This document shows positions 7,112 through 58,812 of a DNA stretch of 64,000 nucleotides, piece by piece. The stretch comes from an uncultured Magnetococcales bacterium (lineage in GTDB: Bacteria; Pseudomonadota; Magnetococcia; Magnetococcales; CAYFNE01): assembly GCA_964344355.1 (NCBI GenBank), contig CAYFNE010000016.1, positions 4,344-68,343 on the forward strand. Reading direction: 5' to 3'. The translations under genes and the position numbers were made by a program. Position 1 is the first letter of the stretch. Each line of letters starts with the position of its first letter. Below the pieces are notes generated by a model. It searched no databases. It saw only the letters and a program-made list of their open reading frames with translations, and was not told the DNA's origin.

Positions 7112-8050
7112 TCAACCGTGGGTGGCGGTCGGTTGGATTTGACGATAATCCTCGGCGGTTTTGCCGGATTGATCGGTCAGGCCGGTGTCGATGCCGTTTT
7201 CGACCAACACCCTGGCGGTATCCTCATGGCCATAGCGGGTGGCCAGCATCAGGGCCGAGGTGCCATCCTCGTTGACGGCGTTGATGTCGGCGCCTTTGGC
7301 GAGGATGCGTTTGACGATGTTGGTGTGGCCTTTTTCCGAGGCCAGCAGCAGGGCCGTACAGCCACACTTGTGTTGACGGCTCAAATCGGCGCCGCTCTCC
7401 AGCAGGAGGGTGGCCACCTTCTCCTTGCCGGCATGGGCGGCCATCATCAACGGGGTGAAACCGTAGCGGTTTTGCATGTTCGGGTTGGCCCCTTTGGCCA
7501 GCAGGGCCGCCACCACCTCGTCATACCCCCGTTTGGCGGCCATCATCATGGCGGTTTCGCCTTTTTTATCGACATTGTTCAGGTTGGACCCGTTGTTCAT
7601 CAAGGTTACCGCCACCTCGGCATAGTCATATTGGGCGGCGGCGGTCAGGGCATCACGTCCGGCATCGGTCACCGCGTTCACGTCGGCGCCCTGTTCCAGG
7701 AGCAGATCGACGATCTCGACATTGCCCCATTGGGAGGCGACGATCAACGGGGTGAATCCCCAACGGTCGTGGCTGTTGACATCGGCCCCGGAGTCGATCA
7801 ACGTTTTCACCACCTCGACATGACCATTTTCGGCGGCCCAGATCAACGGGGATACATCCAGACGGCCCCTGGCTTCGGGGCTGGCCCCCTGTTGCAGGAG
7901 GGATTGCACGGTGGCGGCATCACCATCCATGGCCGCTTGAACCATGCGATCCCCGGTCGGGGCGATATTTCCGGTGCCGATGCTGGCGACGGCGACGAAT
8001 CCGGCCAGTGCGAGCATTGTCAGTTTGAGGGTCATATTCCTGGTGTTCAT
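7112..8050 (-). CDS. Secreted ankyrin-repeat protein
   Basis: 312-aa ORF with a signal peptide (KLTMLALAGFVAVASIG). It carries about 8 tandem ankyrin repeats with recurring GxTPLMxAAxxGHxxVVxLLLxxGAD-type units. Confidence 0.85.
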   Translation of the reverse strand: MNTRNMTLKLTMLALAGFVAVASIGTGNIAPTGDRMVQAAMDGDAATVQSLLQQGASPEARGRLDVSPLIWAAENGHVEVVKTLIDSGADVNSHDRWGFTPLIVASQWGNVEIVDLLLEQGADVNAVTDAGRDALTAAAQYDYAEVAVTLMNNGSNLNNVDKKGETAMMMAAKRGYDEVVAALLAKGANPNMQNRYGFTPLMMAAHAGKEKVATLLLESGADLSRQHKCGCTALLLASEKGHTNIVKRILAKGADINAVNEDGTSALMLATRYGHEDTARVLVENGIDTGLTDQSGKTAEDYRQIQPTATHG

Positions 8051-8146
8051 GGTTTCATCTCCCTGAGGGTCAGGCCTTGTTCAGAGGCCCTTGGACTGTT
8101 GGACAGTCCGGTTGTTCGGTTTGTTGCTACCTTTACCTTAAAATAT

Positions 8147-8162
8147 TGCATCCCTCATGCCA
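8147..8162 (-). promoter_or_regulatory. Candidate sigma-54 (-24/-12) promoter for the ankyrin/multiheme operon
   Basis: The reverse strand reads TGGCATGAGGGATGCA, against the consensus TGGCAC-N5-TTGCA. The GG and GC dinucleotides have the correct spacing. It lies about 95 nt upstream of the ankyrin ATG (8050). Confidence 0.5.
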
Positions 8163-8248
8163 GAATATAAATTTCATTTAAAGTGTTGAAAGTAAAGGTG
8201 TTTTTCCGACACCCCGCCCGCAGACCGAAACCGAACTGTTCCGGCCCG

Positions 8249-8282
8249 TGTCCGAGTGGTACACTCTGGGACATAATGTCCC
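8249..8282. promoter_or_regulatory. Candidate activator-binding site (TGTCC half-sites, perfect palindrome GGGACATAATGTCCC)
   Basis: The sequence GTGTCCGAGTGGTACACTCTGGGACATAATGTCCC lies between the sigma-54-like promoter and the divergent activator gene. 8268-8282 is a perfect 6-3-6 palindrome. Confidence 0.3.
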
Positions 8283-8340
8283 GAACCGGTCCCGCTGACC
8301 GCTCCCGAAGCCGCCCTTATTGCTCCGAGAAAGCCGAAAA

Positions 8341-9813
8341 ATGACGCCTCCAAAGAGTTTTCAGGATGTCGCGTTCCACTCGGGACAAAGTGTCCCAGCC
8401 AATCCGGACGGTCATCCCCTGACCTCCAGCACCGTCCTGAAACAGTGTTTGCGGGCCATTGGCGACAACATTCGCGAAGCCATTATGATCGTTGATGAAA
8501 ATTTGGTGTTACGGCAGGTGAACCCCGCCGCCGCCCGTTTGTGCCATCTGCCCGGAGGTCTGTTGGGACACTCCTTGAAGAAACAGTCCAGGGGCTGTTT
8601 CCCGAAGATCGTCGGCATCCTCTCCCGGGTGATCAACGAGGGGGCGTCGGTGCCCGAGGCGTTGTTGGTCTGTCCGGTCCCGGATTCGGAGCCGGAGATG
8701 GAGACGAAAGGGAAGGGAAAAAAGAAAAAACACCGGGATGAAACACACAACCTGGAGGTCCGCGTCCTCGCCACGCCGCTCCTGGGCAGCAACGGTCACT
8801 GTGTCGGCGCGTTGTTGGTGGTACGGGAGCACACCTTGAAAACCACCATGGCCCAATCTGGCAGGGGCCGCAACCGGTTTCACCGTATGATCGGCGCCAC
8901 CGCGCGCATGCGCGAGATCTATGCCTTGATCGAAGCGTTGTCGAAGATGGAAACGACGGTCTTGATCACCGGGGAGTCCGGCACCGGCAAGGAGCTGGTG
9001 GCCGAGGCGTTGCACAATGAGAGCACCCGCAGCCATGGTCCCCTGGTCAAGGTCAACTGTTCGGCCCTGTCGGAGACCATCCTGGAGAGCGAACTGTTCG
9101 GCCATGTGAAAGGGGCCTTCACCGGCGCCATCCGTGATCGGGTGGGACGTTTTCAAATGGCCGACAAGGGCACCATTTTTCTCGATGAAATCGGCGATAC
9201 CAGCCTCAACATGCAAACCCGGTTGTTGCGCACCATCCAGGAAAAGGAGCTGGAGCGGGTCGGTGACTCCCGTACCGTCAAGGTGGATGTACGCATCGTC
9301 ACCGCCACCAACCGGGACCTCAAGGAAAAGGTCAAGAGCAACCGGTTCCGCGAAGACCTCTTTTTTCGCCTCAAGGTGGTGGAGATCCACCTGCCACCGC
9401 TACGCGACCGGCGGTCGGACATCCCGTTGCTGATCGCCCATTTCATCCAAAAATTCAATACGAAATATGATAAGCACATTGCCGATGTGGCGCACAATGC
9501 CATGGAGTTGTTGATGCACCACAGCTGGCCGGGCAATGTGCGCGAGCTGGAAAACGTGATGGAGCACGCCTTCGTGCTCTGCCGGCAAAACCAGATCCGC
9601 GTCCGGCATCTGCCCAAAGACATGCTCAAGGCCCGTCCCTGCGCCGACCCGCATCCACCCCCCCCGCCGCCGCCACCGACGGCCAACTCCGAGGAGGAGT
9701 CGATCCGCCGCGCCCTGGAGACCGCCCACTGGAAGAAAAAAAAGGCCGCCAAACTGCTGGGGATCAGCCGCAGTACTTTTTATCGGAAGCTGGAAAAGTA
9801 TGGAATCACCTGA
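8341..9813 (+). CDS. Sigma-54-dependent transcriptional activator (PAS-like sensor + AAA+ + Fis-type HTH)
   Basis: It has Walker A GESGTGKE, the GAFTGA sigma-54 contact motif and a C-terminal HTH (KAAKLLGISRSTFYRKLEKYGI). ATG 8341 was chosen; the track starts at TTG 8320. The linker contains a P8 tract. Confidence 0.9.
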   Translation: MTPPKSFQDVAFHSGQSVPANPDGHPLTSSTVLKQCLRAIGDNIREAIMIVDENLVLRQVNPAAARLCHLPGGLLGHSLKKQSRGCFPKIVGILSRVINEGASVPEALLVCPVPDSEPEMETKGKGKKKKHRDETHNLEVRVLATPLLGSNGHCVGALLVVREHTLKTTMAQSGRGRNRFHRMIGATARMREIYALIEALSKMETTVLITGESGTGKELVAEALHNESTRSHGPLVKVNCSALSETILESELFGHVKGAFTGAIRDRVGRFQMADKGTIFLDEIGDTSLNMQTRLLRTIQEKELERVGDSRTVKVDVRIVTATNRDLKEKVKSNRFREDLFFRLKVVEIHLPPLRDRRSDIPLLIAHFIQKFNTKYDKHIADVAHNAMELLMHHSWPGNVRELENVMEHAFVLCRQNQIRVRHLPKDMLKARPCADPHPPPPPPPPTANSEEESIRRALETAHWKKKKAAKLLGISRSTFYRKLEKYGIT

Positions 9814-10078: not shown

Positions 10079-11116
10079 ATGAGGAAAAACCTGATCGCTG
10101 TTTCCCTGCTGGCCCTGACCTTGACCTTTGCCGGGGCGGCCAGCGCCGGAGAGAGATCCCGTTCGCAAAACCCGTTCACCGAACAGGAGTTTTCCAAGTT
10201 TCTCGATGATTACTCCGGCGTCACCGCCTGGTTGGCCGAGCAGGGCCGGGGCCGTAATCTGGTGCACAATCCCTGGATCCTGACCGGCATGCGCTACAGT
10301 CCGAAACTGGCCGCGCATCTCAAGGAGAAGGGTTGGGAGGTCGATCGTTTTTTCTATCTGCTCGATCACATCAACATGGGCCTGTTGACCAGCCGCGCCG
10401 ATGAAAACCGCAAAAAGGCCGAGGCGCGCCGGGCCGAACGGGAAAAGGAGATGGAAGCGCGCCTTTCCGAGGGACGCAAACGGGCCCGGGAGGGTCACGG
10501 TCGGATGAATGAGGCGATGCGCAAACAGATGGCCGCCAGCAACGCCCGCTATCAAAAACAACTGGCCGAACAGCGCGCCCGCATTCAAAACGATCCCTAT
10601 ATGAGCCCCCAGCAAAAAAGCCAGATCCTGGCACAGATGACCCGCACCAACAAACAGATGTCGGCCGCCAACGAGGGTTCGGTCGGTCCGCAGGAGATGC
10701 GCGCCCGCATGGAAAAACAGCAACAGCAGTGGCTGGCGGCGCAACAACGCATGATCCGCAACAACCCCTACATGTCCCCCTACCAGAGACAGATGGCCCT
10801 GGCCGGCCTGCAGGCGCCCAAAATGCCCAAACCGCCCGCCAAACCGGACATGAGCGGCGAAAAAATGCGCGCCCGGGCCCTGAAGGAGCACCAACGGTTG
10901 ATGGCCGAACATCGCCAGCGCATCAGCAACAACCCCTATTTCACCCCCCAGCAGAAAAAACAGATGTTGGCGCAGTTGCAAGAGGTCACCGAACGCATGG
11001 AAAGCGACATGAAACGACCTGCCTCCAGCCAAGGCGGCCTGCTGCCCGACAACGAAATGGCCCTGATCAAGGAAAACCGCAAAAAGCTGCTGGGGATCTT
11101 TTTCCCGGAAAAATGA
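10079..11116 (+). CDS. Secreted Gln/Lys/Arg-rich protein with three NNPY(M/F)(S/T)PxQ(K/R) repeats
   Basis: 345-aa ORF with a signal peptide (AVSLLALTLTFAGAASA). It has three spaced repeats: RIQNDPYMSPQQKSQILAQM, MIRNNPYMSPYQRQMALAGL and RISNNPYFTPQQKKQMLAQL. Confidence 0.7.
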   Translation: MRKNLIAVSLLALTLTFAGAASAGERSRSQNPFTEQEFSKFLDDYSGVTAWLAEQGRGRNLVHNPWILTGMRYSPKLAAHLKEKGWEVDRFFYLLDHINMGLLTSRADENRKKAEARRAEREKEMEARLSEGRKRAREGHGRMNEAMRKQMAASNARYQKQLAEQRARIQNDPYMSPQQKSQILAQMTRTNKQMSAANEGSVGPQEMRARMEKQQQQWLAAQQRMIRNNPYMSPYQRQMALAGLQAPKMPKPPAKPDMSGEKMRARALKEHQRLMAEHRQRISNNPYFTPQQKKQMLAQLQEVTERMESDMKRPASSQGGLLPDNEMALIKENRKKLLGIFFPEK

Positions 11117-11163
11117 GTTGTTGAACGGTCGTTGAGGCCGTCGTACCAAGGCGGCCCGGCACC

Positions 11164-11206
11164 AAAAAGCCGGAACGGCTCCCGAGGGGGCGGTTCCGGC
11201 TTTTTG
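11164..11206 (+). terminator. Rho-independent (possibly bidirectional) terminator
   Basis: The sequence is AAAAAGCCGGAACGGCTCCCGAGGGGGCGGTTCCGGCTTTTTGGG. A GC-rich stem (GCCGGAAC/GTTCCGGC plus inner pairs) is flanked by an A-run and a T-run, 50 nt after the stop at 11116. Confidence 0.65.
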
Positions 11207-11297
11207 GGTATCGGGGTGGGTGTCCGCGGAAGGTGTCAATGAACATGATACCGTTTCAATTTAACAATGGCCTGATGTCAGCGACCTGTTCCGACGA

Positions 11298-11520
11298 CGG
11301 GCAAAGCGAATGCCTTGTTGCGCAACAACCGCGCAACAAGGCATTCCGAGGCTCGCCGGTAAAAACGCCGGCGACTGTCTGATGCGCGTTTGCGCGCCTT
11401 TTGCTGAGAAACGCAAAAGGCGCTATTGTGAAAAACGCGCAAATTCAAAGTCAAAATCAAAGTCAAAAGCGTGGGCGCTGCCCACACCCGCCAGGAGGCC
11501 AACCCCGTGGACCCCAATTA
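11298..11520. repeat. Multi-hairpin intergenic repeat element, copy A
   Basis: Homologous in the same orientation to 56638-56874. Hairpins are at 11308-11346 (16-bp stem), 11353-11374 (7 bp) and 11394-11423 (11 bp). These are followed by a (TCAAAG/TCAAAA)x4 microsatellite and a conserved GTGGGCGCTGCCCACACCCGCCAGG..GGACCCCAATT tail. Confidence 0.8.
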
Positions 11521-11698
11521 ATGAAAGTAAAACAATTTTTTCAGCTTCCAGAATGCTTTCTATCCATTAGGACATCTTTCCATCGCAACGGTATGAGACA
11601 CGAGCCAGCCGGAAAGGAAACCGACGAAACCAACCATTTGGTGAGGCAGGGGGGGGCAATTTCTCAGGTCGCCCGACACCGGCCTGCCATCCTTCGAA

Positions 11699-12592
11699 TC
11701 AAGGACCGGCCACGAAGCCGGTTTTTATGAGGATTTCCCGGCCCTTGGGACTCATGATCCAGTCGAGATATTTTTTGACCATGCCTTTGGGGGCGCCCAG
11801 GGTATACATGTAGAGGGGCCGGGACATGGGATAGGAGTGGTCGAGGGTGAAGGCGGCGGTGGGGGGGACGCAGGGACCCTTGTCGATGCCGCCGCCGAAC
11901 AGACAGAGGGTTTTGACCCAGCCGGTGGCGAAGGCCATGCCCGTATAGCCGATGGCGCACGGTTCCCCGGCCACCCGGTCCACCACCTGCTCGGAGGCGT
12001 CCAGGGTCTCCATCTGGGAATGAAAACGACGCCGTTTGCCAAAAATGGCGTGTTGAAAAAAGGTGTAGGTTCCGGACTTGTTTTTGCGGCTGACGCGGAG
12101 AATTTTCTGGTCCTCGCAGCCGGGTACCGTCACTCCCAGGTCGGTCCAGCGGTCGATGTGGCCCTTTTTGCCATAGATCTCCGCCAATTGCCTTAAAGAG
12201 ACGCCGTGCAGGGGGTTGTTGCGATGCACCAGCATCGTCACCGCATCCAGTCCGACGACATGGGAGACCGGTTTCAGGCCGGACCGTTTGGCGATCAACC
12301 GGGCCTCGCGTTTTTTCAGCGAGCGGCTGGTATTGGCGATTTCGATGTGGCCGTTGATCAGGGCGGCGATGCCGTTGCCGGAGCCGCCGCCACCGACCTC
12401 CACCCGTACATCCGCCACCTCCTTCTGGAAAGCCCGCGCCCAGAGGGTGGCCACCCGTGCCAGGGTGTCGGAACCCTTGGTGCGGATCACCTTTTCCCGG
12501 GCCCGGGCGCTGCCGGCCCCCATGGTCGATCCCAGCAGCGGGATCAGGCAACACAGTAGGACAACGAAGAGAGAGTTGCGGTTCGATTTCAT
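11699..12592 (-). CDS. PstS-family (phosphate/oxyanion) periplasmic substrate-binding protein
   Basis: 297-aa ORF with a signal peptide. It shows type-2 PBP features typical of PstS-like proteins (IRTKGSDTL..., GGGGSGNGIAALINGHIEIANTSR). Its ATG overlaps the stop of the upstream ATPase (ATGA, 12589-12592). Confidence 0.75.
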   Translation of the reverse strand: MKSNRNSLFVVLLCCLIPLLGSTMGAGSARAREKVIRTKGSDTLARVATLWARAFQKEVADVRVEVGGGGSGNGIAALINGHIEIANTSRSLKKREARLIAKRSGLKPVSHVVGLDAVTMLVHRNNPLHGVSLRQLAEIYGKKGHIDRWTDLGVTVPGCEDQKILRVSRKNKSGTYTFFQHAIFGKRRRFHSQMETLDASEQVVDRVAGEPCAIGYTGMAFATGWVKTLCLFGGGIDKGPCVPPTAAFTLDHSYPMSRPLYMYTLGAPKGMVKKYLDWIMSPKGREILIKTGFVAGP

Positions 12593-24872: not shown

Positions 24873-27800
24873 ATGTCTGAGGCCCTTTTCGATCCTCGCC
24901 ATGATCCCGCCTTCGCCGCCATGTCCCTGGAGATCGTTCAGGAGCTGTTGCACCGGTCCGGAGACCTGGAGCGGACCGTCGCCTGTCTGTTGCACAAGGT
25001 TCGTGAAATCAGTGGCGCCGACCTCGTGGTGATCAGCCGGGCGTTGCCGGCGGGCCAAACCGGCGCCGGCAACCATGAACTGTTGGGCGTTCTGCCGCCG
25101 ACGGAAAAAAAGATCTTCACCGCCGACCGCTGGCAATCGTTGTCCACCGCCGCTGCCGCCCTGGCCGGCCCGATCCTGGTTCGGAGCGGTTCCGAACCGG
25201 GCGCGCTGGGAAACACGTTGCGGGAATTGAATGTTGGTTCGGGGTCGGTGATGCCACTCACGGTCGGCCAACTGCGGGTTGGAACCCTGTTCGCCCTGGG
25301 ATTGAACGAGGATCGTTACACCCCCGCCATCCATGGGACGTTGGCGGCACTGGCCGGGATCGTCTCCAACAATCTCCACAACGCCCTGCTCTGGGAGGAG
25401 CGGCGCCGGGCGGAACGGGTGTTGCGGGAGTCCGAGGAAAAATACCGCACCCTGGTGGAAAATTTGAATGTTGGCGTCTTTCGCCACACCGTCGCCGGCA
25501 ACGGGCGGTTTTTGCAGGCCAACGAGGCCATCGCCCACATGTTCGGTCATGCGGATGTGTCCGCCTTCATGACCGTTCCCATGTCGGCGCTTCATAGCCA
25601 TTCCGAGGCGTATGAGGATTTTTTGCACTTTCTGATCGGCGAGGGGGAGTGCCGAAACCACGAATTGCAGCTGCAAAAAAAGGATGGCACCCCCATCTGG
25701 ACCTCTCTCAACATCAAGGTTCGATATGACGATACCGGCCAGGTCCAGTGGCTGGATGGCACCATCGTCGACATCACCGCCCGCAAGGCCGCCCGGGAAA
25801 AATTGCGCATCAGCGAGGAACGGTTCCGGGGCACCTTCGAAAATGCCGCCCATGGCATGGCCCTGATTTCGCCGCAGGGCCGATTCCTCAAAATCAATCG
25901 GGCCTTTTGTGAGATCGTCGGTTACACCAACGATGAACTGTTGGCCATCGATTTTCAAACCATCACCCATGCCGACGATCTGGAGATCGATCTGGCTTAT
26001 GTGCGGCAGATGCTGGCCGGCGTCATCCCCACCTATCAGATGGAAAAACGCCATATCCACAAGGATGGGCACATCATCTGGGTCCTGTTGAGTGTCTCCC
26101 TGGTGTGGGATGCCAATGGGAAACCCTTGCATTTCGTCTCCCAGGTCCAGGACATCACCGCCCGCAAGATTGCCGAGGAACAACTGGTCAAGGCCAAGGA
26201 TGATCTGGAGCTGCAGGTCCACTGTGTCAACCGGTTGCAAAGCCGTTTCATCGAGGAGACCGACCCGGAAGAGTTGTTCGATGCCCTGCTCCTGGATGTC
26301 CTGAAGCTGACCGGTAGTGACTATGGATTCATTCACGGGGTTCGCCTGGATGAGTCCGGTGTCCCCGTACTTCAATCCCTGGCCATTGCCAATCTCTCCC
26401 GGGATCGGGAAACCCGGGCTTTTTTCCAGGCCAACGCCTGGAGCGGCATTCGATTTACCCGAATGCACGGTCTCCATACCGCCCCTTTCACCACCGGCGT
26501 GCCGGTGATCGCCAACGATCCGCCCAACGATCCGCGGCGATGTGGCCCCCCGGAGGGACACCCGGTCCTGAAGACTTTTCTGGGACTGCCCCTGAAACGG
26601 GGTGAGGAGGTGGTTGGCGTCATCGGACTGGCCAACCGCGCCGGTGGGTATGACCGGGCCATCATCGATTTTTTGAAACCGGTCCTCCTGGCCGCCGCCC
26701 AGGTGATTGAAAGCCATCGCAACCAGCGGGAAAAACGGCAGGTCGAAGAGGCCTTGTCGACCAGTGAACGGCGCAACCGCATGATCGTCCAGGCGGCGCG
26801 GGTGGCGGTCTGGGACTGGGACCTGGTCACGGATGTGACCATCTGGAACCAGGGGTTGACCGATCTGTTCGGTCATCCCGCCGGAGCCGTGGAAAATTCC
26901 CGGCGTTGGTGGTTGGATCACATCCATACCGATGATTGTTCCCGTGCTGGGGAGAGCCTGTCGGCCCACCTTCGGACCCGGCATGATACCTGGCGTCAGG
27001 AGTATCGTTTCCGGAGAGCCGATGGCCGTTGGGCGGCGGTCATCGACTGGGGACAGGCCATTGCCGATGAGTCCGGTCGGTCCATCCGCATGATCGGCGC
27101 CATCATGGATATCACCGACCGTCAGCGGCGGGAGGAGACCATCCTGCGTTTGAGCCGTCAAAATGAATTGATCCTCAACGCCGCCGGGGAGGGCATCTAT
27201 GGTCTGGATGACAAGGGTGTCACCACCTTCGTCAATCCCGCCGCCGCCCGCATGGTCGGATGGAAACAGCAGGAATTGATCGGCCGGGTCCAGCATGATG
27301 TGTTCCACCATTCCGCGGCCGACGGTACGCCGCAAAAACGGGAACACTGTTTGATTTACGCGGCGTTGCGCGATGGCAGGACCCATCATGTGACCGATGA
27401 GGTGTTTTGGCGCAGGGATGGGACCCGCTTTCCGGTGGAGTATGTCAGCACCCCGATCATCGAAAACGGGCGCATTGCCGGCGCGGTGGTGATTTTCCGG
27501 GATGTGACCGAGCGCAAACGGATGGAGACGGCCCTGCGCGAGGCCAAGGAGCAGGCGGAACGGGCCAACGAGGCCAAGAGCGAATTTTTGGCCAACATGA
27601 GCCATGAGATCCGCACGCCCTTGAACGGTATCATCGGCATGGCGGAACTGCTTTTGGAATCAGGGCGGTCGGAATCGGAGCGCCGATATGCCGAAACGAT
27701 CCTCCGTTCCGGGGACAACCTGCAGGTGATCATCGATGACATACTCGATTTTTCCAAGGTCGAGGCCGGTCGGCTGGAGCTGGAGGAGACCTGTTTCGAT

Positions 27801-29132
27801 CTGCCCGGCCTGTTGCGGTCGATGATGCCGCTCTATCAAAAACTGGCGCAGAAAAAAAATATCTTCTGCCATCTCGACATGGCCCCCGACCTGCCCCGTT
27901 TCGTCCGCGGGGATCCAACGCGGCTGCAACAGATTCTGGTCAATCTGATCACCAATGGCATCAAGTTCACCAGCGATGGCGGTGTCACCCTGATCGTTAC
28001 CGGCGGTCCCCCGGAAACCGGTCGTGCCGGCCTCATCTTTCAGGTGCGGGACACCGGCATCGGTATTTTTCCGGGCAAACTGTCCAAACTGTTCAACGCC
28101 TTTTCCCAGGCGGACAGCTCCACCACCCGCAAATATGGCGGTACCGGTCTCGGGTTGGCCATTTCAAAACGGTTGGCCCGGTTGATGGGCGGGGATGTGA
28201 CCGTCAAAAGCACCCCGGGAAAGGGCAGTGCCTTCACCCTGCGGGTCACCCTGCCTTTGGCCGGTCGGGCGGAGACCGAAGTGATCCTCCGGGAAAACCG
28301 GGCGTTGTCGCGGGACCTCCCGAAAGCGGTACGGGTCCTGGTGGTGGAGGATGAATCGATCAACCGTTCGGTCATTCAGGCCATGTTGGTCAGCCTCGGT
28401 TTTTCGGCCGATATCGCCGTCAACGGCAGGGAGGCCCTGGAGCGGTTGCATCGGAACCGTTACGACCTGGTGCTGATGGATTGTCAGATGCCGGAGATGG
28501 ACGGATTCGATACCACCCGGAATCTTCGCGCCCGGGAACAGGGATTGGACGGCCACCGTCACACCCCGGTGGTGGCCCTGACCGCTTATGCCATGAAGGG
28601 AGACCGGGAAAAATGTCTGGCCGCCGGGATGGATGATTATCTGGCCAAACCGGTGCGCAAGCGGGCATTGCGGGCGCTGCTCTCCCGTTGGCTCGGTGAA
28701 ACGGGCAATGGAAAGGGTGGGCCGGGCTCCGGTTCGTCTCCCCCGGAACCGCAGCAACCCCGGGGGCCGGCCCCACCACCCGAGGAAGAGATCCTGGACA
28801 AACGGGTATTGGCCGATCTGCAGGAGGAGATGGGGGATGCCTTCGTGTTGATCGTGGAAAAATTTCTTGAAAGCCTGCCGCACCATTTGGCCCGCATCGA
28901 GGAGTCCCTGGCCCGGGAAAGCCCCGTGAGTGTGGCCGAGACCTGCCACAAGCTGAAAGGCACCTCCAGTCAACTCGGCGCCAAACGGCTCGCCGACCGG
29001 ACCAAGGCGTTGGAGCAAATGGGACGTGCCGCGAACATGACCGGGGCCGTGAGCGAATTTTCCGGGTTGCGGCAAGAGGTGCAACGGACGGAACAGGCCT
29101 TTCGGCGGCTGCTCTCTTCCACGGATCCGTAA
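24873..29132 (+). CDS. Large hybrid sensor histidine kinase (GAF, multiple PAS, GAF, PAS, HisKA, HATPase_c, REC, HPt)
   Basis: It has the H-box [21 protein letters not shown] boxes ([24 protein letters not shown]), REC ([27 protein letters not shown]) and HPt ([16 protein letters not shown]). ATG 24873 with a GGGAGGGA RBS was chosen over the track start at 24690. Confidence 0.9.
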
Positions 29133-49965: not shown

Positions 49966-51956
49966 CCGGAATGACGACACGTCCGAAAATCCTCATCGTC
50001 GATGATTCCAACGCCAGTATCCGCGTGTTGCGGGAGATTTTTCGCGCCAACCATGAAATTTTCATCGCCCGCGATGGCGCCGACGCCCTGAAAATCGTCA
50101 AAAAAAAAGAGCTCGATCTCATCCTTCTGGACGTAATGATGCCGGACATGGATGGCTACGAGGTGTTGGAACAGCTGCGGGCCAATCCCGAAACCCTGGA
50201 CATCCCGGTCATTTTCATCACCGCCCTCAACGCCGGACCGGAAGAGATCCGCGGCTTGGACTCCGGCGCCGTGGACTATATCACCAAGCCGATCCAACCG
50301 GCCCTGGTGGCGGCGCGGGTACGCAATCAACTGGAGCTCAGCCAACGCCGGAAAATGCTGGAAAAACTGCTCGATGAGCGCGAGCGGATGTTGGTGGAGC
50401 TGAAAAAATCACGGGATGCCGCCGAACAGTCCAACCAGGCCAAGAACGCCTTTCTCTCCACCATGAGCCACGAAGTGCGCACGCCGATGAACGCCATCAT
50501 CGGCATGACCGATCTGGCCCTCAAGACCGACCTGAACCAGGAACAACGCCAATATCTGGAGATCGCCCTGCAGTCCGGGGAGTCCCTGCTGGGCATGTTG
50601 AACAACATTTTGGACTTCACCCGCCTGGAAGGGGGCGAACTGGAGTTGCGTTCCATCCTGTTCGATCCGGTGGAAGTCCTGGAAAACGCCTGCGAAACCT
50701 TTTCAGTACGGGCCCACTATAAAAATCTGGAGTTGTTGCACGACGTCTCACCGGACATTCCCTCACGGTTGCTGGGTGACCCCTTCCGCCTGCGCCAGGC
50801 CCTGATCAATCTCATCGACAACGGCATCAAGTTCACCAAGAAGGGCACGGTCCTGGTACGGCTCGGCGTCGATCGGGACCATCCGCTCCGGCACCCCGAA
50901 CGCGGCGGCAGCCCGCGCCTGATGCTGCACTGGCGGGTTTCCGACACCGGCATCGGCATCCCCCCGGAAAACCGGGAGATCATCTTCGAACGGTTCGTCC
51001 AGGGCGAGGATTTCCGCACGCGCAAATATGGCGGCGCCGGGCTGGGACTGGCCACCTCCAAGGAGATCGCCGAACAACTGGAAGGGTCATTGACCGTTGA
51101 AAGCCCCGGTGTCAATCAGGGCGCCGTCTTTCATCTGACCCTGCCCTTCCCGGTACCGCCGGAGAGCGCTGGCCACGGTTATTTCACCCGCTCGGGCAAT
51201 TTTTCCGGCCTGCGCATCCTGATTTCCGAGGCCAACCAGCAGGCGCGGACCATCATTCGGCGTACCCTGGGCATGTGCGGGGCCACGGTGGTGGAAACCG
51301 GTTCCCACGCCGAGGCCCGGGACCTGCTCGATGCACAGGACGGGAAACAGCCCTTCCATCTGTTGCTGCTAACCTGTCGGCGCGATGATCCGGAGATGGA
51401 AACCCTGGCGCAATGGCTCACCGGAAATCCCCGCTGGAACGGCAAAATCATCATCATGCTGCCCACCGGCCTGCGCCGCTATGATCTGCCCGGTTGCAAG
51501 GAGATCACCGTCTCCAGCGGGTTGATCAAACCGGTCAAACGGTTTCGTCTGATCCATGCCATCAACGTCGTCCTCGATCTGGACCAACCCGATGAGGAGG
51601 AGCACACGCCGCTGCCGGAAGCGCGGATGAAACCGGAGCCGCTGCTGGAACCGGACGAGACCGACGATGAGGAGTTGAAACGAAAACGGTTCCAGTTCAT
51701 GGAGACCGCCCTGGTACCGCTGGAACAGCTGACCGACGCCATGATGCAGGGCAAAATAACGAAAATGCTCAGTCCGGTGCGCTGGTTGAAATATCAGTCC
51801 GGGGAGATCGGTGCCAAACGGTTGGAGTTTTGCGCCCGTTCCTTCATCGTCGCCATCAATGAGGAGAACATCGCCGACGCCGCCTTTCAGTTCGAGGTCC
51901 TTCAGGAAACCTTCCGCCGCACCGCCGAAGCCATCGCCCACTGTTTGAACGATTGA
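49962..51956 (+). CDS. Cytoplasmic hybrid histidine kinase (REC, HisKA, HATPase_c, degenerate receiver, HPt-like C-terminus)
   Basis: The ATG overlaps the upstream stop (ATGA, 49962-49965). It has REC (ILIVDDSNA..LILLDVMMPDMDG..KP), the H-box FLSTMSHEVRTPMNAIIGM and the G-boxes DTGIGI and GGAGLGL. A pseudo-receiver follows, with LLLLTCRRDD in place of the phospho-Asp context. Confidence 0.85.
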   Translation: MTGMTTRPKILIVDDSNASIRVLREIFRANHEIFIARDGADALKIVKKKELDLILLDVMMPDMDGYEVLEQLRANPETLDIPVIFITALNAGPEEIRGLDSGAVDYITKPIQPALVAARVRNQLELSQRRKMLEKLLDERERMLVELKKSRDAAEQSNQAKNAFLSTMSHEVRTPMNAIIGMTDLALKTDLNQEQRQYLEIALQSGESLLGMLNNILDFTRLEGGELELRSILFDPVEVLENACETFSVRAHYKNLELLHDVSPDIPSRLLGDPFRLRQALINLIDNGIKFTKKGTVLVRLGVDRDHPLRHPERGGSPRLMLHWRVSDTGIGIPPENREIIFERFVQGEDFRTRKYGGAGLGLATSKEIAEQLEGSLTVESPGVNQGAVFHLTLPFPVPPESAGHGYFTRSGNFSGLRILISEANQQARTIIRRTLGMCGATVVETGSHAEARDLLDAQDGKQPFHLLLLTCRRDDPEMETLAQWLTGNPRWNGKIIIMLPTGLRRYDLPGCKEITVSSGLIKPVKRFRLIHAINVVLDLDQPDEEEHTPLPEARMKPEPLLEPDETDDEELKRKRFQFMETALVPLEQLTDAMMQGKITKMLSPVRWLKYQSGEIGAKRLEFCARSFIVAINEENIADAAFQFEVLQETFRRTAEAIAHCLND

Positions 51957-52018: not shown

Positions 52019-54580
52019 ATGTCACTGACGGCGCTGGTGGCCACCGGCCTCGTCGTGCCGCTGTTTTCGCTGCTGCCGCCGGACCGTCCCTGGCGTTGGC
52101 TCACCCTGTCCGGCATCGTTTTCTGTCTGTTTTTCGCCGTCCAGTGGTGGGTTCGGCGACGGAGCGGCACCCGGACGGCGCCCCCGCCCCCCCCCGAAAC
52201 GGCGCCGGAGCGGCAACCGTTGGACCCGGCCTATTACCGCGCCATCATCGACAGCTCCCTGGACATGATCATCGCCGCCGATCCGCAGCGGCGCATCGTC
52301 GAGTTCAACAAGGCCGCCGAACGAACCTATGGCTATCGGGCCAACGAGGTGCTGGGAAAGCCGATCGATCCCCTCTACGCCGACCCGGAAGAGATGCAAC
52401 GGGTCGGGGAGGTGATCCAACGAACCGGCCGGTTCATCGGCGAGGTTCGGGGCCGCCGCAAGGACGGCGACCTTTTTCCCGCTTTCATTTCCGCCACCCT
52501 GTTGCGCGATCCGCAGGAACGCATCATCGGTTCGGTGGGCAGTTCCCGGGACCTCAGCCATCAACGGCAACAGGAAAAACGGGAACGGCTGGCCATTGAG
52601 GAGGCACAGGTGGCCAGTCAGGCGAAAAGCGCCTTCCTGGCCAACATGAGCCATGAGATCCGCAGTCCCATGAACGCCATCATCGGCATGACCGATCTGT
52701 TGTTGGGGGTCAGTCTCAGCACCCGTGAGCAACGACAGTATCTGGAGGTGATCATGCGGTCCGGTGAGTCGCTGCTCGGATTGCTCAACGGCATCCTCGA
52801 CTATTCCAAGATCGAAGCCGGCAAGCTGGAATTGGAAACCTTCTCCTTCGATCCGGCGGAGGTGGTGGAGTCGGCCTGTGAAACCCTGTCGGTGACCGCC
52901 CATGGCAAGGGGCTGGAGTTGATCCATGATCTGGACCCGGAACTGCCGCCGCGCCTGTTGGGCGATCCGTTGCGTCTGCGGCAGGTGATCGTCAACCTGG
53001 TCGACAACGCCATCCGTTTCACCCGCGAGGGCGAGGTGAAGGTGTCGTTGACGCCGGACCGCTCCGAGCCGACCGGGAACGGGGAGACGGGCGGCGCCAT
53101 CACCCTTCGCGGCACCGTTACCGATACCGGCATCGGCATCGAAGGGGATCGGTTGGAGGCGATCTTTTCCCATTTCAGTCAAGCCGGCGTCGACACCAGC
53201 CGCAAGTTCGGCGGCAGCGGTCTGGGCCTGACCATCTCCCGCCAGCTCATCGAACACATGGGCGGCACCATCCGGGCGGAAAGCCCGGGTCCGGGCCGCG
53301 GCAGCACCTTCCATTTTTCCCTCACCCTCGACCGGGATCCGCAAGCGGAGAGACGGGAGGCGCCGGCCGATTTTTCCGGTTGTCATTTTTTGCTCGCCGT
53401 CGGCAATGACGCCCTGCGCCGGGTGCTGAACCGGTCGTTGGCACCCCATGGTCCCACCCTCACCAACGCCGCCAACGCCGGCGACACCTTGAACGCCCTG
53501 CGCGATACGGATCGACATCCATCGCCGTTCACGCTGTTGATCATCGACTGTCAACTGCCGGGGCTGGACACGGCCAACATCGGCGGCTGGATACGGACCC
53601 ATCGGCAACGGGTCGGAAATACCATCATTCTGCTGCCCATGGGCAGCCGCCGTTACGATCTGCCCGGCTGCCGGGACCTGGATGTGGCCCGGGGTTTGAT
53701 CAAACCGGTCAAACGGGAGGCCCTGATCCGCACCCTGCGGGAGGTCCTGGAACCGGTCCACGCCGCCGAGCCCGAACCGGCCCGGCCGGAGCGGGACGAA
53801 AACGACGGTCCGGAGAAAATTTTGGTGGTGGACGACAATATCGATACCCGCACCCTGGCCCGGCACATCCTGGAGCAGGCCGGCCACGCGGTCGAAACGG
53901 CGGAAAATGGCGCCGACTGTCTGGAAAAACTCTCCAGGGCCCCGTTCGATCTGGTGTTGATGGATGTGCAGATGCCGGAACTCGACGGACTGGAGGCGGC
54001 CCGGGCCATTCGCGGCGGCCGGCTCGGCATCGACTCGAAGACCCCGATCCTCGCCATCAGCGCCGGGGTGTTGCCGGAGGATGTGGAACAGTGCCTGGAG
54101 GCGGGCATGAACGAATTTTTGCCCAAACCCTTCCGCAGCGACGCCCTGCTGGAGGCGATGCGGCACACCCTGGATAAAGCGAAACGGACGGCGCCAACCG
54201 AAGACCGGTCGAAAGGGAGCGCCAACGCCCGCCGCGGCCCGGTATTCCAGGTCCCGATCCTCTCCCCGCAACCGCTGGACAACCCCGACTTTCTGGCCAT
54301 CGCCCGGACCTTTCGGGAGACGATCGACGACCGTTACCGGGATTTGCAGTCGGCGCTGACCGCCGGCCTGCCGGACCGGGTGGAGATCACGGCCCGAACC
54401 ATCAAGGAGGAGGCCGGTCGTCTCGGCGCCGAGCGGGTCCACAACCGGGCGTTCCGGCAGATACTCGCCGCCCGCAACCGGGATCTGGACACCGTGCGGC
54501 AACTGATGCCCCGCCTGCGCCGGGAGATCGATGAGGTGATCGCCACCCTGGCCGATCAGCCCCCACCCCCCGGGCAATGA
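52019..54580 (+). CDS. Membrane hybrid histidine kinase (2 TM, PAS, HisKA, HATPase_c, degenerate receiver, REC, HPt)
   Basis: It has the H-box [35 protein letters not shown] (ILVVDDNIDTR..DLVLMDVQMPELDG..KPF) and HPt-like IKEEAGRLGAERV. The start is uncertain: ATG 52019, or TTG 51953 overlapping the upstream stop. Confidence 0.85.
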   Translation: MSLTALVATGLVVPLFSLLPPDRPWRWLTLSGIVFCLFFAVQWWVRRRSGTRTAPPPPPETAPERQPLDPAYYRAIIDSSLDMIIAADPQRRIVEFNKAAERTYGYRANEVLGKPIDPLYADPEEMQRVGEVIQRTGRFIGEVRGRRKDGDLFPAFISATLLRDPQERIIGSVGSSRDLSHQRQQEKRERLAIEEAQVASQAKSAFLANMSHEIRSPMNAIIGMTDLLLGVSLSTREQRQYLEVIMRSGESLLGLLNGILDYSKIEAGKLELETFSFDPAEVVESACETLSVTAHGKGLELIHDLDPELPPRLLGDPLRLRQVIVNLVDNAIRFTREGEVKVSLTPDRSEPTGNGETGGAITLRGTVTDTGIGIEGDRLEAIFSHFSQAGVDTSRKFGGSGLGLTISRQLIEHMGGTIRAESPGPGRGSTFHFSLTLDRDPQAERREAPADFSGCHFLLAVGNDALRRVLNRSLAPHGPTLTNAANAGDTLNALRDTDRHPSPFTLLIIDCQLPGLDTANIGGWIRTHRQRVGNTIILLPMGSRRYDLPGCRDLDVARGLIKPVKREALIRTLREVLEPVHAAEPEPARPERDENDGPEKILVVDDNIDTRTLARHILEQAGHAVETAENGADCLEKLSRAPFDLVLMDVQMPELDGLEAARAIRGGRLGIDSKTPILAISAGVLPEDVEQCLEAGMNEFLPKPFRSDALLEAMRHTLDKAKRTAPTEDRSKGSANARRGPVFQVPILSPQPLDNPDFLAIARTFRETIDDRYRDLQSALTAGLPDRVEITARTIKEEAGRLGAERVHNRAFRQILAARNRDLDTVRQLMPRLRREIDEVIATLADQPPPPGQ

Positions 54581-56192: not shown

Positions 56193-56600
56193 AACCGACA
56201 ACCACTCCGGAAACAGGGCACTTTTTCCCCGTCGTTCCGCCTGCCGGGCCCGGTTGAAATCGGCCACCGCCCGCTCCTCCCGGCCCAGGGCGCGCCAGAT
56301 GTTGCCCCGGTTTCGGTAAGCCTCGGTATTCTCCGGATCCAGTTCGATGGCCCGGGTCAAATCGGCCAGGGCCCGAACCCGGTCCCCCTGATGCCACCGG
56401 GCCACCCCCCGGTCATTATACACCTTGGCGGCGGTACCGTCCCAGACCGCCGGGTGGTTGAGACAGTGGTTCAACCGTTGAATCCGCCGCTCCAGGTCCG
56501 GTTCCCCCGCCAACTCCCGGCAATCGTTCTGCAACAACAGCCAGGCAAAGCCACCAATGGCGAGCAGGCCGAGAACCATCATCTTCAGGGCGGAGCTCAT
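56181..56600 (-). CDS. Membrane-anchored TPR protein
   Basis: The 139-aa version starts at MSSALKMMVLGLLAIGGFAWLLL (ATG 56600), followed by TPR units (YNDRGVARWHQGDRVRALADLTRAIELDPENTEAYRNRGNIW). The track ORF's N-terminal extension runs into repeat copy B. Confidence 0.65.
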   Translation of the reverse strand: MSSALKMMVLGLLAIGGFAWLLLQNDCRELAGEPDLERRIQRLNHCLNHPAVWDGTAAKVYNDRGVARWHQGDRVRALADLTRAIELDPENTEAYRNRGNIWRALGREERAVADFNRARQAERRGKSALFPEWLSVLWP

Positions 56601-56637
56601 GGGGTCCTGAATGATCGGATGGGTTGGAAACGTTTTT

Positions 56638-56874
56638 CGGGCAATGCGGCCGATGCAATCGGTTGTGCAAAAAACGCACAACCGATTGCATCGGCCCATG
56701 GCTCACCGGTACCGGCGCCGGTGATTTCTTGATGCGCGTTGCGCGCCTTTTGCTGAGAACCGCAAAAGGCGCTTTTTGAGCTGAACGCGCTAAAATCAAA
56801 ATCAAAGTCAAAACCGTGGGCGCTGCCCACACCCGCCAGGGGGCCAGCCCCCTGGACCCCAATTGTTTTGTTTT
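56638..56874. repeat. Multi-hairpin intergenic repeat element, copy B
   Basis: Homologous to 11298-11520. Hairpins are at 56650-56694 (19-bp stem), 56703-56724 (7 bp) and 56743-56772 (11 bp). These are followed by a TCAAAA/TCAAAG microsatellite, GTGGGC-GCT-GCCCAC (56816-56830), CCAGGGGG-CCAG-CCCCCTGG (56836-56855) and a GGACCCCAATT end. Confidence 0.8.
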
Positions 56875-56895
56875 TTTTCATTTTTTTCTGGTTGT

Positions 56896-58812
56896 TTATT
56901 TCTTGAAAATCGTTTTCATGACGCCGCCCAACCAGCCACTCTCTTCTGCCACCTTCCCCGTCTCTTCCGGCTTTTTTTCACCATCCAGGGCCTCTCCTTC
57001 TCCCCGGTCCGGCTCCTCCCCTTTGGCAAACGACCAATCCAATACCCACTGTTTGATCACCCCATCCCGGCCACCACTCAGAAAAAAACCGGTATCCCGA
57101 TTGAAACGCAAGGCGCACACCCCCTTGTCATGCCCCTCCAACGTGAACAGACACCGCCCCGTTTCCACCTCCCAAATACGAATGGTGCCATTTTTACCAC
57201 CGGACAAAGCATGCCGCCCATCCTGACTCAAAACCACCGACGCCACCACCCGACCATCACTCTCAAAGGTACGCTGACAAAAACCGGTGGCCACATCCCA
57301 TAATTTCAACGTGCCATCCTCACTGCCGGTCAAAACCATGCGGCCATCCAATCGCAGGGAAATGGCAGTGACGGGACCTTGATGACCTTCACAGTTGTGC
57401 TTGGACTGCTCGGTACGGGCCAGATTCCAAATTTTCAACGTGCCATCCCGACTGCCAGCCAAGGCATATGCGCCATCAAAACTCAAGGCCACCGAGGTCA
57501 CCGTGTCCCAGGGCCCCTTCAAGGTTTTCAAGACCACCCCACTGGCAACATCCCACAACCGCACGGTCTTGTCGGCGCCCCCCGACAGGACGTGCCGGCC
57601 ATCGACACTCATGACCACCGCCGTCACCGGCCCCTCATGCCCCCGTAATACCGTCCCGGCCCCATCATCACTGCGCGGGTCCCACAATCGCACGGTGTGA
57701 TCGGCCAGGGCGGCGGCGGCGATTTCACCGTTGTAACTCAAATCGATGGCATCGACGGCGCCCCCCGGAAAGGAAACCTGCCGCGATAAACGGCCCGTTT
57801 CCAGGTCCCATCGACACAGACGGCCATCGCCACCGCCGGAAAACAGAAAACGACCGTCTTCATCGAACAACACATCGTTCAACTCCGGATGGCGATCGGG
57901 CACCACGAAATATTCCCAGGCCCCGCGCAGGCGGTGACGGGGCAACAACCGGCACAACCGGGCACAAATGGCCATGGCCTCGGCGCCCCGGTCAAAACCG
58001 GTCTGGGCGCGGGCATTGCGGACATGTTCGAGGGCCAGGGCCGCATCCCGAACCTTGAGGGCCCGGCGGGCGGCCTCGATCTCCTGGTCATAGGCGGTTT
58101 GGGTGGCGAGGACCGTTTCACTGTCGCGGATGCGCGACAACATGAACGGGGCGCGTTCCCGCTTTTCCGGATGGATGGACCACAGTTTCATCCGCCAACG
58201 GTCATCCATGGCCAACACATGATGGCCATCGGCGGCCAGGGCCCCCTGCGTCACCGCCCCGGAGCCGATGGCATGGGTGAACAGGCAGCGACCGCTGGCC
58301 ACCTCCCACAGACGCACGGTACCATCGGCGGAAGCGGAAAGGGCCAAACGGCCGGCCCGATCCAGCGACAGGGCGGTAATGGCCTTGAGATGCCCCTGGA
58401 AACGACGCAACCGACCGGCCTTTTCCAGGGACCACAACCATACCGACCCGTCCTTGGCCCCCGACAACACCCGATCATGACGCCAATCGACGGCCAGGGC
58501 GGTAATGACCGCCTCGTGCCCTTCCAGGGTCAGCAACGGACGGCCATCGGCCACCTCCCATAAACGCAGGGTGCGATCCTCGCTGCCGGAGAGCGCCCGC
58601 CGGCCATCGTCGCTCCAGGCCAACTGCGTCACCCGACCGGTATGACCATCGAAGGAACGGGGATCGCCCTCGCCACCGCCGGTATCGCGCAGGATCAGGG
58701 TGGCGAAACTGCCGGAGAGCACCCGCCCCCCCCGGGATCGAGTGCCACCGCCGATACGGTGTCCATGTGACCGGTGAAGGTGCGCAGACACCGGCCATCG
58801 GCCAAATTCCAC
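56896..58812 (-). CDS. WD40-repeat region, C-terminal half of the frameshift-split kinase-WD40 gene
   Basis: It holds many WD40 units (GHxxxVxxxxxSxDGxxxLSGSxDxTLRLW-type). The N-terminal ~35 aa of the track ORF are nonsense, with no credible own start. The reading frame joins 58695..60560 at the G8 run. Confidence 0.8.
   Translation of the reverse strand: MEFGRWPVSAHLHRSHGHRIGGGTRSRGGRVLSGSFATLILRDTGGGEGDPRSFDGHTGRVTQLAWSDDGRRALSGSEDRTLRLWEVADGRPLLTLEGHEAVITALAVDWRHDRVLSGAKDGSVWLWSLEKAGRLRRFQGHLKAITALSLDRAGRLALSASADGTVRLWEVASGRCLFTHAIGSGAVTQGALAADGHHVLAMDDRWRMKLWSIHPEKRERAPFMLSRIRDSETVLATQTAYDQEIEAARRALKVRDAALALEHVRNARAQTGFDRGAEAMAICARLCRLLPRHRLRGAWEYFVVPDRHPELNDVLFDEDGRFLFSGGGDGRLCRWDLETGRLSRQVSFPGGAVDAIDLSYNGEIAAAALADHTVRLWDPRSDDGAGTVLRGHEGPVTAVVMSVDGRHVLSGGADKTVRLWDVASGVVLKTLKGPWDTVTSVALSFDGAYALAGSRDGTLKIWNLARTEQSKHNCEGHQGPVTAISLRLDGRMVLTGSEDGTLKLWDVATGFCQRTFESDGRVVASVVLSQDGRHALSGGKNGTIRIWEVETGRCLFTLEGHDKGVCALRFNRDTGFFLSGGRDGVIKQWVLDWSFAKGEEPDRGEGEALDGEKKPEETGKVAEESGWLGGVMKTIFKK

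Follow-up and report, generated by a model that had tools for sequence, protein, structure and literature searches.

Two copies of an intergenic hairpin element

The element described here is present twice, as copy A and copy B, in a 64-kb stretch of a Magnetococcales metagenome-assembled genome (MAG); the whole of this stretch was analysed and is referred to as the window. Copy A (11298..11519, + strand, delimited by alignment with copy B) is located between convergent genes, with a 345-aa gene on one side and on the other a minus-strand PBP_like_2 gene whose stop codon lies 179 nt from the element. Copy B (56638..56864, + strand) occupies 227 of the 295 nt that separate minus-strand WD40 and TPR genes. 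It lies 22-31 nt past the WD40 stop codon and 37 nt ahead of the TPR ATG, and the gene pair that encloses it is probably an operon. An earlier reading of the sequence, designated the original prediction, had described a multi-hairpin element at these two loci and had placed it 179 nt and 22 nt after the minus-strand genes, and these distances were found as stated. The 3' unit of the element is a member of a family of hairpin modules that lie between genes, increase in number inside genomes and are found in several phyla, and it is in this module, not in hairpins 1-3, that the weight of the evidence lies.

Each copy is about 225 bp long and comprises five hairpins and a TCAAAR hexamer array, all described here as read on the + strand. 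Hairpin 1, a hypervariable palindrome, has a perfect 16-bp stem and the loop AACAACC in copy A (11308..11346), and a perfect 19-21-bp stem and the loop AAAAAAC in copy B (56648..56696). Hairpin 2 is formed by TCGCCGG and CCGGCGA in copy A (11353..11374) and by TCACCGG and CCGGTGA in copy B (56703..56724). Hairpin 3 spans 11384..11440 and 56734..56790, including an inner stem (GCGCCTTTTGC/GCAAAAGGCGC, 11394-11423 in copy A; 56743-56772 in copy B) and an outer stem, GCGCG/CGCGC, that is kept in both copies. The hexamer array that follows, composed of TCAAAG and TCAAAA, contained 4.7 units in copy A (11440..11468) and 3.7 units in copy B (56792..56813), as determined with Tandem Repeats Finder (TRF). 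In copy A the array constitutes the A-rich tract preceding the head hairpin of the 3' module, and on the minus strand it is a U-rich tract. The module itself closes each copy. In copy A (11471..11519) it consists of the head hairpin GTGGGCGCTGCCCAC (11471-11485), the linker ACCCG, hairpin 5 (11491-11510) and the tail ACCCCAATT; in copy B (56816..56864) the head hairpin (56816-56830) is followed by the same linker, hairpin 5 (CCAGGGGGC/GCCCCCTGG, 56836-56855) and the same tail. A covariance model (CM) of the module matched copy A with 52.2 bits (E=3.6e-12) and copy B with 71.2 bits (E=2.5e-17). Hairpin 5 is perfect in copy B and has two mismatches in copy A, where it has decayed without compensation. 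Both strands of both copies folded far below shuffled controls, with z values of -6.9 to -8.9.

The two copies were collinear and on the same strand, as predicted, with a mean column identity of 81% in a MAFFT alignment. Identity was 9/10 at the left end, 59% in hairpin 1, 16/22 in hairpin 2, 86% in hairpin 3 with its outer stem and 77% in the hexamer spacer, and rose to 20/20 in the head hairpin and linker, followed by 17/20 in hairpin 5 and 9/9 in the tail. The 50 nt flanking the element on either side were 39-45% identical, which is the random level, and the ends at 11298/56638 and 11519/56864 are therefore sharp. Conserved 25-mer and 21-mer cores each occurred exactly twice in the window and not at all in shuffled sequence, and a repeat search of the window returned the same two copies. 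All stems given in the original prediction were borne out, including those of hairpin 1, which measure 16 bp in copy A and 19 bp in copy B (21 bp when extended) and enclose 7-nt A-rich loops, and TRF confirmed the TCAAAG/TCAAAA array. The prediction was also correct that the hairpin 3 stems are identical, but it missed the conserved outer stem. Its treatment of the GC-rich tail as a minor appendix did not stand: the tail is the conserved, widespread module, with real covariation, and provides the decisive evidence.

Comparison of the copies revealed a single compensatory pair in hairpin 2, G-C to A-U, where the G>A change had correctly been matched to a C>T change on the other arm. The arms of hairpin 1 are homologous, yet between the copies each arm shows no fewer than four substitutions and two indels, with every difference mirrored and both stems perfect. 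Since independent mutation and selection would hardly yield mirrored indels, these changes suggest that one arm served as the template for rebuilding the other, or that palindromic modules were exchanged whole. A generating or copy-correcting mechanism, or module swapping, fits the mirrored changes better than stepwise compensation. The claim that structure is kept while the stems change held for the hairpin 2 pair and for the mirrored hairpin 1, but the case for selection on structure that can be made from the sequences of two copies alone is thin.

Hairpins 1-3 had no relatives in any collection searched, and a metagenome scan with the hairpin-3 21-mer gave one match only, a chance match within a coding region. 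No degenerate module was found inside hairpins 1-3. A search of Rfam, which had been proposed with the original prediction, matched no family: the window contained no match at the gathering threshold, E values up to 10 gave only chance matches to microRNAs and long non-coding RNAs, and the elements of 16 related loci were likewise without a match. A tRNA 3'-half origin, a twister-like ribozyme and attC were considered and were set aside as a poor fit to the loop sizes and the Rfam results. A scan of the window for tRNA and transfer-messenger RNA genes found none, and no reading frame was conserved between the copies. A 94-aa open reading frame (ORF; 56597-56881, minus strand) spans all of copy B and is called as a protein in NCBI and ENA (P0001). 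In a protein search this ORF matched only itself, and it is almost certainly a spurious gene call due to the repeat.

A fixed head and a free second hairpin in the 3' module

The module, about 55 nt long, is made up of an A-rich tract, GTGGGCGCTGCCCAC, ACCCGCC, a perfect hairpin of free sequence and A(C/T)CC. The architecture shared among genomes was an A/T-rich tract, (C)GT-GGGCGCTGCCCAC and ACCCGCC, the last CC of which opens the second hairpin, with A(C/T)CC ending the module. When the 20-mer GGGCGCTGCCCACACCCGCC was scanned against one genome per species, it matched more than 113 genome stretches, and about 100 among the matches listed showed the full module architecture. About 12 matches within high-GC coding DNA (Streptomyces, Mycobacterium and others) were set aside as chance, their number being roughly what composition predicts. 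Carriers of the module included Clostridia MAGs (ES-bin-9 and MGG03684, plus Oscillospiraceae, Ruminococcus, Scatosoma, Christensenellales and Lachnospiraceae MAGs), one Defluviitaleaceae MAG, Synergistaceae, Myxococcota and Bradymonadia, and, within the Rhodospirillaceae, Phaeospirillum tilakii, Magnetospirillum fulvum and molischianum, Rhodospirillum and Novispirillum. Magnetococcales relatives carried variants of the module, three copies at locus L123 and one at L124. The second hairpin followed host composition, reading CCAGGGGGC or CCAAGGGCC in GC-rich genomes and CCCCTTTTT, CCAACTTTT or CCAAAGAAACTTTT in AT-rich genomes, with the head unchanged. The 12 nt preceding the head were A/T-rich even at 67% G+C, and an A4 or T4 run preceded the head in 33% of GC-rich loci compared to a background of 2.3%.

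Covariation was assessed in an alignment of 62 distinct module sequences. In the second hairpin, 98.5% of cells were paired, compared to 32-53% in slid controls; because only rows whose hairpin measured 8-10 bp and contained no more than one mismatch had been chosen, the paired percentage is inflated, and the diversity of the stems is unaffected. Double-sided changes were present at 9/9 pairs of this hairpin, with 157 compensatory cells as against 30 in shuffles. The head hairpin varied solely at its two closing pairs, where changes were compensated (GT..AC, GC..GC, AT..AT and TT..AA), and the linker ACCCGC(C/T) was retained across these head variants. The CM built from this alignment matched only the two copies in the window, even with filters off, and gave 158 matches in 613 kb of module loci, with up to 6 per 8 kb. 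Covariation, for which a check had been suggested with the original prediction, was strong in the second hairpin of the module; for hairpins 1-3 no further copies were found.

The module was present in high copy number in several carriers, with dozens of loci in ES-bin-9 and the Defluviitaleaceae MAG; in Phaeospirillum and Rhodospirillum its density was 3-6 copies per 8 kb. Many copies were at contig ends. In the Rhodospirillaceae and Defluviitaleaceae, 24/28 neighbouring module pairs were inverted, with tails facing each other and heads outward. In the window, no inverted partner was detected within 500 nt of either copy with CM filters off, and both copies are singlets. Orientation and intergenic status were judged where ORF calls can be trusted, as in AT-rich genomes. 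The copies there were intergenic and faced either way with respect to genes (27 vs 20), and all four configurations of neighbouring genes occurred. The head was located 7-30 nt past a stop codon or, where a divergent start followed, 32-40 nt ahead of it. Because both orientations occur across the family, a dedicated cis-regulatory RNA is disfavoured as the primary explanation. The original prediction, which had offered several types of element, was upheld as regards an intergenic repeat that keeps its structure, of repetitive extragenic palindrome (REP), bacterial interspersed mosaic element (BIME) or miniature inverted-repeat transposable element (MITE) type.

Mosaics of the module with other hairpins were found in several genomes. 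In ES-bin-9 the module stands at the start of a unit of about 235 nt with about seven consecutive hairpins and ...AAAGAAAGTAAGGTTTT at its end, and the two ends bear different hairpins. Dozens of near-identical copies of this unit were present (L001, L005, L015, L031 and about 25 other loci), often at contig ends, and its 5' end usually followed a TAG(A/G)AC-like motif, 7-30 nt from a stop codon or 32-40 nt from a start codon. In Oscillospiraceae copies a hairpin and an A-rich spacer precede the head, as in the window, and at about 3840-3890 of L023 (Oscillospiraceae SIG683) a 46-nt insertion with two small hairpins lies inside the second hairpin of the module, which looks like a nested insertion or a module swap. 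The Magnetococcales locus L123 (GCA_002753565.1) contains two tandem composites and a third copy (7922-8354 and 11073-11357), after terminators between convergent genes. In the annotation these elements appear as genes of 94-95 aa. They have the compensated head variant TTGGGCGCTGCCCAA, and AAAGTCAA(A/C) motifs before their hairpins echo the hexamer array of the window copies. The added hairpins differ among the L123, L027, Oscillospiraceae and ES-bin-9 composites.

No gene was recurrently linked to the module. ORF clustering of 113 loci returned housekeeping families only; one module pair (L027) encloses recG and another (L014) a glycosidase-like ORF, and no transposase was enclosed. A tblastn search with an E. 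coli sequence of a REP-associated tyrosine transposase (RAYT), a weak test, covered the window and about 0.9 Mb of loci and found no match. These data bear on whether the element is a classical MITE, moved by a DDE transposase and defined by terminal inverted repeats and target-site duplications. The heads-outward doublets found elsewhere do resemble terminal inverted repeats of about 55 nt, and GTTTT flanks copy B on both sides. In the window copies, however, the left end (CGGGCAAWGC) bears no relation to the right end (ACCCCAATT) and no inverted partner module is present, so terminal inverted repeats are lacking; copy A has no flanking direct repeat, and such a repeat was not consistent across copies. 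With the differing end hairpins of the 235-nt ES-bin-9 elements and no transposase gene recurrently linked, we regard a MITE as quite improbable.

Matches were also found outside chromosomes. A variant of the module, ACCCGGC-AGGGG...CCCCTGC-ACC, was present on two plasmids, P. monteilii pSTW0522-72-4 (L118, 1828-1880) and a plasmid of Pseudomonas sp. Z8 (L119, 20651-20702). Both plasmids are small and typed as non-mobilizable, and the module matches are unannotated; one precedes a Mob/Pre 'plasmid recombination protein' gene by about 440 nt, and the other lies between umuC and rep. These plasmids may be a vehicle for horizontal spread; the settings of the matches themselves decide nothing. Among 2.9 million viral contigs there was one true module, two further matches being chance matches in coding sequence, and phages are not an obvious vehicle. 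The motif was undescribed in the searchable literature, including that on REPs of Magnetospirillum, in a library that was itself incomplete, and RepRanger made no mention of the carrier taxa or of the module motifs.

Genomic setting, further copies and the question of strand

At 11116-11700 of the window, copy A and then a PBP_like_2/AAA_23 operon come after the 345-aa gene. An exact protein match was found on ENA contig ERZ930070, and homologues of the 345-aa gene carry the names Magnetococcales or Magnetococcus. In two Magnetococcales relatives the orthologue of this gene is followed by a spacer of 81-87 nt and then by a hybrid histidine kinase and DUF3301 (L120, 8080-8167; L124, 11104-11185). 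As the next gene is different in both relatives, copy A lies at a synteny breakpoint, and no clean empty site is available for it. Directly after the 345-aa gene, at 11148-11215, is a GC-rich hairpin (CCGGAACGGC...GCGGTTCCGG) with AAAAAG and CTTTTTGGG at its flanks; from its sequence this looks like a bidirectional intrinsic terminator that is separate from the repeat. Two other sets of repeats were present in the window. The regions 27542-28168, 50408-51061 and 52591-53241 share 67-79% DNA identity over HATPase-like motifs and represent paralogous histidine-kinase genes, unrelated to the repeat. The DNA repeats at 57163-58970, with a period of about 126 nt, lie inside minus-strand WD40 genes and correspond to the blades of WD40 proteins rather than to a non-coding repeat.

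Unitig-based contigs in the Logan collection, from two runs of the same sample, end at window positions 11275 and 11466 (at copy A) and 56832 (at copy B); the contigs that end at or beside the copies are L115/L116, L129 and L130. The exact match between copies A and B around the head is only 26 nt, and since the two share no 31-mer there, a branch of the k=31 graph at these points implies other copies or variants. This suggests that additional copies or population variants are present in the source sample. The same observation bears on another origin, in which an intergenic stretch with a REP-like singlet in it was duplicated just once as a segment and the 225-bp unit is in itself neither mobile nor functional. 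Such an event would agree with the two copies found in the window, with the lack of matches to hairpins 1-3 elsewhere and with the position of copy A at a synteny break relative to the two Magnetococcales relatives. It is nevertheless improbable, given that both copies have the same sharp ends amid unrelated flanks, that every difference in hairpin 1 is mirrored, and that the Logan contigs break inside both copies at k-mers unshared by A and B, which points to additional related sequences.

Read on the reverse strand, which in the window is the sense strand of the flanking genes, the module presents a hairpin, CGGGU, GUGGGCAGCGCCCAC, G and then a U-tract. Terminator-like sites were predicted on the minus strand of both copies, at 56815..56831 in copy B, where the head hairpin is read as TGTGGGCAGCGCCCACG and is followed by GTTTTGACTT, and at the equivalent 11467-11489 in copy A; both are matches to a consensus only. 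The terminator or 3'-untranslated-region role put forward in the original prediction is compatible with the position of the copies and with these predicted sites. Mismatches in the stems were also biased. In head orientation, A.C and C.A mismatches outnumbered G.T and T.G mismatches by 29 to 11 among unique model matches, and by about 16 to 6-7 after collapse by lineage (p about 0.05). The excess of A.C over G.T favours the reverse strand as the one with tolerance for wobble pairs, and this may be the strand where pairing matters. Taken together, the reverse-strand pairing and termination evidence, derived from sequence patterns, is suggestive. It is not decisive, since the ES-bin-9 copies lack a U-tract and no orientation rule was apparent, and the pairing may act in RNA or in single-stranded DNA.

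These observations form the basis of a different explanation, in which the copies are primarily a minus-strand RNA feature (an intrinsic terminator, attenuator or 3'-end stabiliser for the upstream WD40 and PBP-like genes) and their repetition is secondary. Both copies lie downstream of minus-strand genes; in both, the minus-strand head hairpin is followed by G(C/G)TTTTGACTTTGA and was called terminator-like; and the stem mismatches favour the reverse strand as the wobble-tolerant one. Across the family, the A-tract that flanks the head is a U-tract on the reverse strand. A terminator, however, needs no 22-nt head conserved across phyla, all four gene configurations occur in AT-rich genomes, and the ES-bin-9 copies have no U-tract past the reverse-strand head. 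At copy B, in what is probably an operon, the next ATG is 37 nt away and a strong terminator would shut off the TPR gene; copy A is 179 nt from the stop codon. We consider it unlikely that this is the main role of the element. A function in termination or at mRNA ends ranks second as a primary explanation and is plausible as a by-product.

A terminator-like site was also present on the + strand, at hairpin 3 of copy B, where TTTTTGA follows the 11-bp GC-rich inner stem. This site raises the possibility that each copy is a + strand small-RNA gene running from hairpin 1 to hairpin 3, with hairpin 3 as its terminator, and the strong folding of the copies (z -6.9 and -8.9) agrees with it. In copy A, hairpin 3 is followed by TATTGTG, with no T-run, and no promoter-like site was present upstream on the + strand in either copy; within the element, no convincing match to sigma-54 or sigma-70 promoters was found, with spacing judged by eye. 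Hairpin 1, which would be the largest stem of such an RNA, is the least conserved part, and there were no homologues in the collections searched and no Rfam match. A small-RNA gene is therefore very improbable.

Relation to known repeats and interpretation

REPs of Enterobacteria are species- or genus-specific, have a GT[AG]G head, and affect mRNA 3'-end stability and termination as side effects. The window element resembles REPs and BIMEs in its short GC-rich extragenic palindromes (15 nt for the head hairpin of the module, about 20 nt for the second hairpin), in forming mosaics with other short motifs, and in its position after stop codons and between cistrons in either orientation. The module head opens with GTGG, a variant of GT[AG]G, but this GTGG is paired within the stem, with the variants GCGG, ATGG and TTGG matched by compensating partners. 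The module differs from REPs and BIMEs in having a fixed 6-bp hairpin and 7-nt linker before a second hairpin of free sequence, and in a head that is near-identical across phyla, with no RAYT identified for it. The window element further adds three hairpins and a hexamer array that are private to its lineage.

In REPINs a conserved end forms inverted doublets; the spacer need only pair, and changes in it are often compensatory (Bertels and Rainey 2011, PMC3116915). The inverted, heads-outward doublets of the Rhodospirillaceae and Defluviitaleaceae, which are high-copy, extragenic and non-coding, correspond to this description. The window copies, in contrast, are singlets, and the module head spans Bacillota, Pseudomonadota, Synergistota and Myxococcota. 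Group 1 RAYTs have been reported in 21 bacterial classes including Clostridia (PMC5581495). The GTAG- and CGTC-tagged REP super-families consist of an unpaired tag, a palindrome and a CCA-like tail, form dimers and occur in many phyla (Di Nocera et al. 2013, PMC3733652). The module shares with them a palindrome with a short conserved part and a short tail, the many phyla and the dimers; in contrast to these super-families it has no unpaired tag, its stems are not opened by the A-T pairs of CGTC REPs, and its conserved part is 22 nt long and itself folds.

Palindrome-associated transposable elements (PATEs) of the IS200/IS605 type offered a further comparison. In IS608-type elements the cleavage and target tetranucleotide lies just outside the end hairpin. 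The window copies and the 235-nt elements of ES-bin-9 are similar to such PATEs in having no terminal inverted repeats or target-site duplications and in their differing end hairpins, and a short conserved A-rich or TCAAA motif lies just outside the end hairpin, like the tetranucleotide site of IS608. They differ in that no tnpA or tnpB was found near about 150 module copies examined and no Rfam models for IS605/HEARO-type RNAs were matched. The minus strand also resembles an intrinsic terminator, with GC-rich hairpins followed by a U-rich tract and, in copy B, an A-tract on the other side. It departs from one in its cross-phylum sequence conservation, in its multi-hairpin units of about 225 bp and in those module copies whose orientation and placement would make termination pointless or damaging.

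On balance, we favour the interpretation that the two loci are copies of a non-coding, non-autonomous mosaic repeat of REP/BIME/REPIN-like type that spreads as DNA, probably by way of a trans-acting enzyme that recognises hairpins, and we hold this with moderate confidence. It is supported by the sharp ends, the multi-copy extragenic spread in both orientations, the mosaics and inverted doublets, the conserved head next to a covarying hairpin and the lack of a linked gene. By analogy with REPINs and IS200/IS605 elements, and from the architecture of the module, the head and A-tract would be the recognition or cleavage site of this enzyme on folded single-stranded DNA, and the natural candidate is a Y1/HUH transposase of RAYT or IS200-IS605 type. 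The adjoining hairpins would need only to fold. An enzyme of this kind would be expected to leave stems that pair with any sequence, no target-site duplications and palindrome arms that are perfectly mirrored. The window copies would be singlets bearing a lineage-specific extension, hairpins 1-3. On the minus strand, their two GC hairpins and U-rich tract would probably attenuate or terminate transcription, or protect the 3' end of upstream mRNA in the manner of E. coli REPs, and such an effect would be a side effect or an exaptation.

Several points weigh against spread by such an enzyme. No transposase was identified, and no excision, empty site or insertion polymorphism was demonstrated. 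The window holds just two copies in 64 kb, both singlets, and because hairpins 1-3 are without relatives, mobility is at most presumed for the 225-bp unit itself. Neither GTAG nor CGTC, the unpaired tags that mark REP super-families described earlier (PMC3733652), is carried by the module. Finally, REPIN-RAYT systems are reported to be mostly vertically inherited, which makes a near-identical head across phyla unusual for that kind of repeat.

A bolder and less probable reading is that the 55-nt module represents an undescribed cross-phylum super-family of hairpins that depends on one conserved trans-acting partner, either a horizontally moving Y1/HUH enzyme or a host factor. Such a host factor may act on one strand of RNA or of single-stranded DNA. 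The head may be the recognition site, with lineage-specific hairpins added on, and the 225-bp Magnetococcales element with its self-mirroring hairpin 1 may be one derivative. As an intergenic hairpin repeat, the window element is of an ordinary type; what sets it apart is the cross-phylum fixed head with a free hairpin, and the self-mirroring hairpin 1.

REP-like repeats are usually regarded as lineage-specific. A 22-nt head shared by Clostridia, Rhodospirillaceae, Magnetococcales, Synergistaceae and Myxococcota, next to a hairpin that is free to change, points to common recognition machinery or to repeated horizontal spread of a non-autonomous element. The repeats also have practical consequences, as they break metagenome assemblies and cause spurious ORF calls, such as the 94-aa ORF that spans copy B and, at L123, the 'genes' of 94-95 aa. 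The mirrored remodelling of hairpin 1, indels included, provides a small, clean case for how the arms of a palindrome stay identical. Located 7-40 nt from stop and start codons, module repeats can alter the expression of neighbouring genes.

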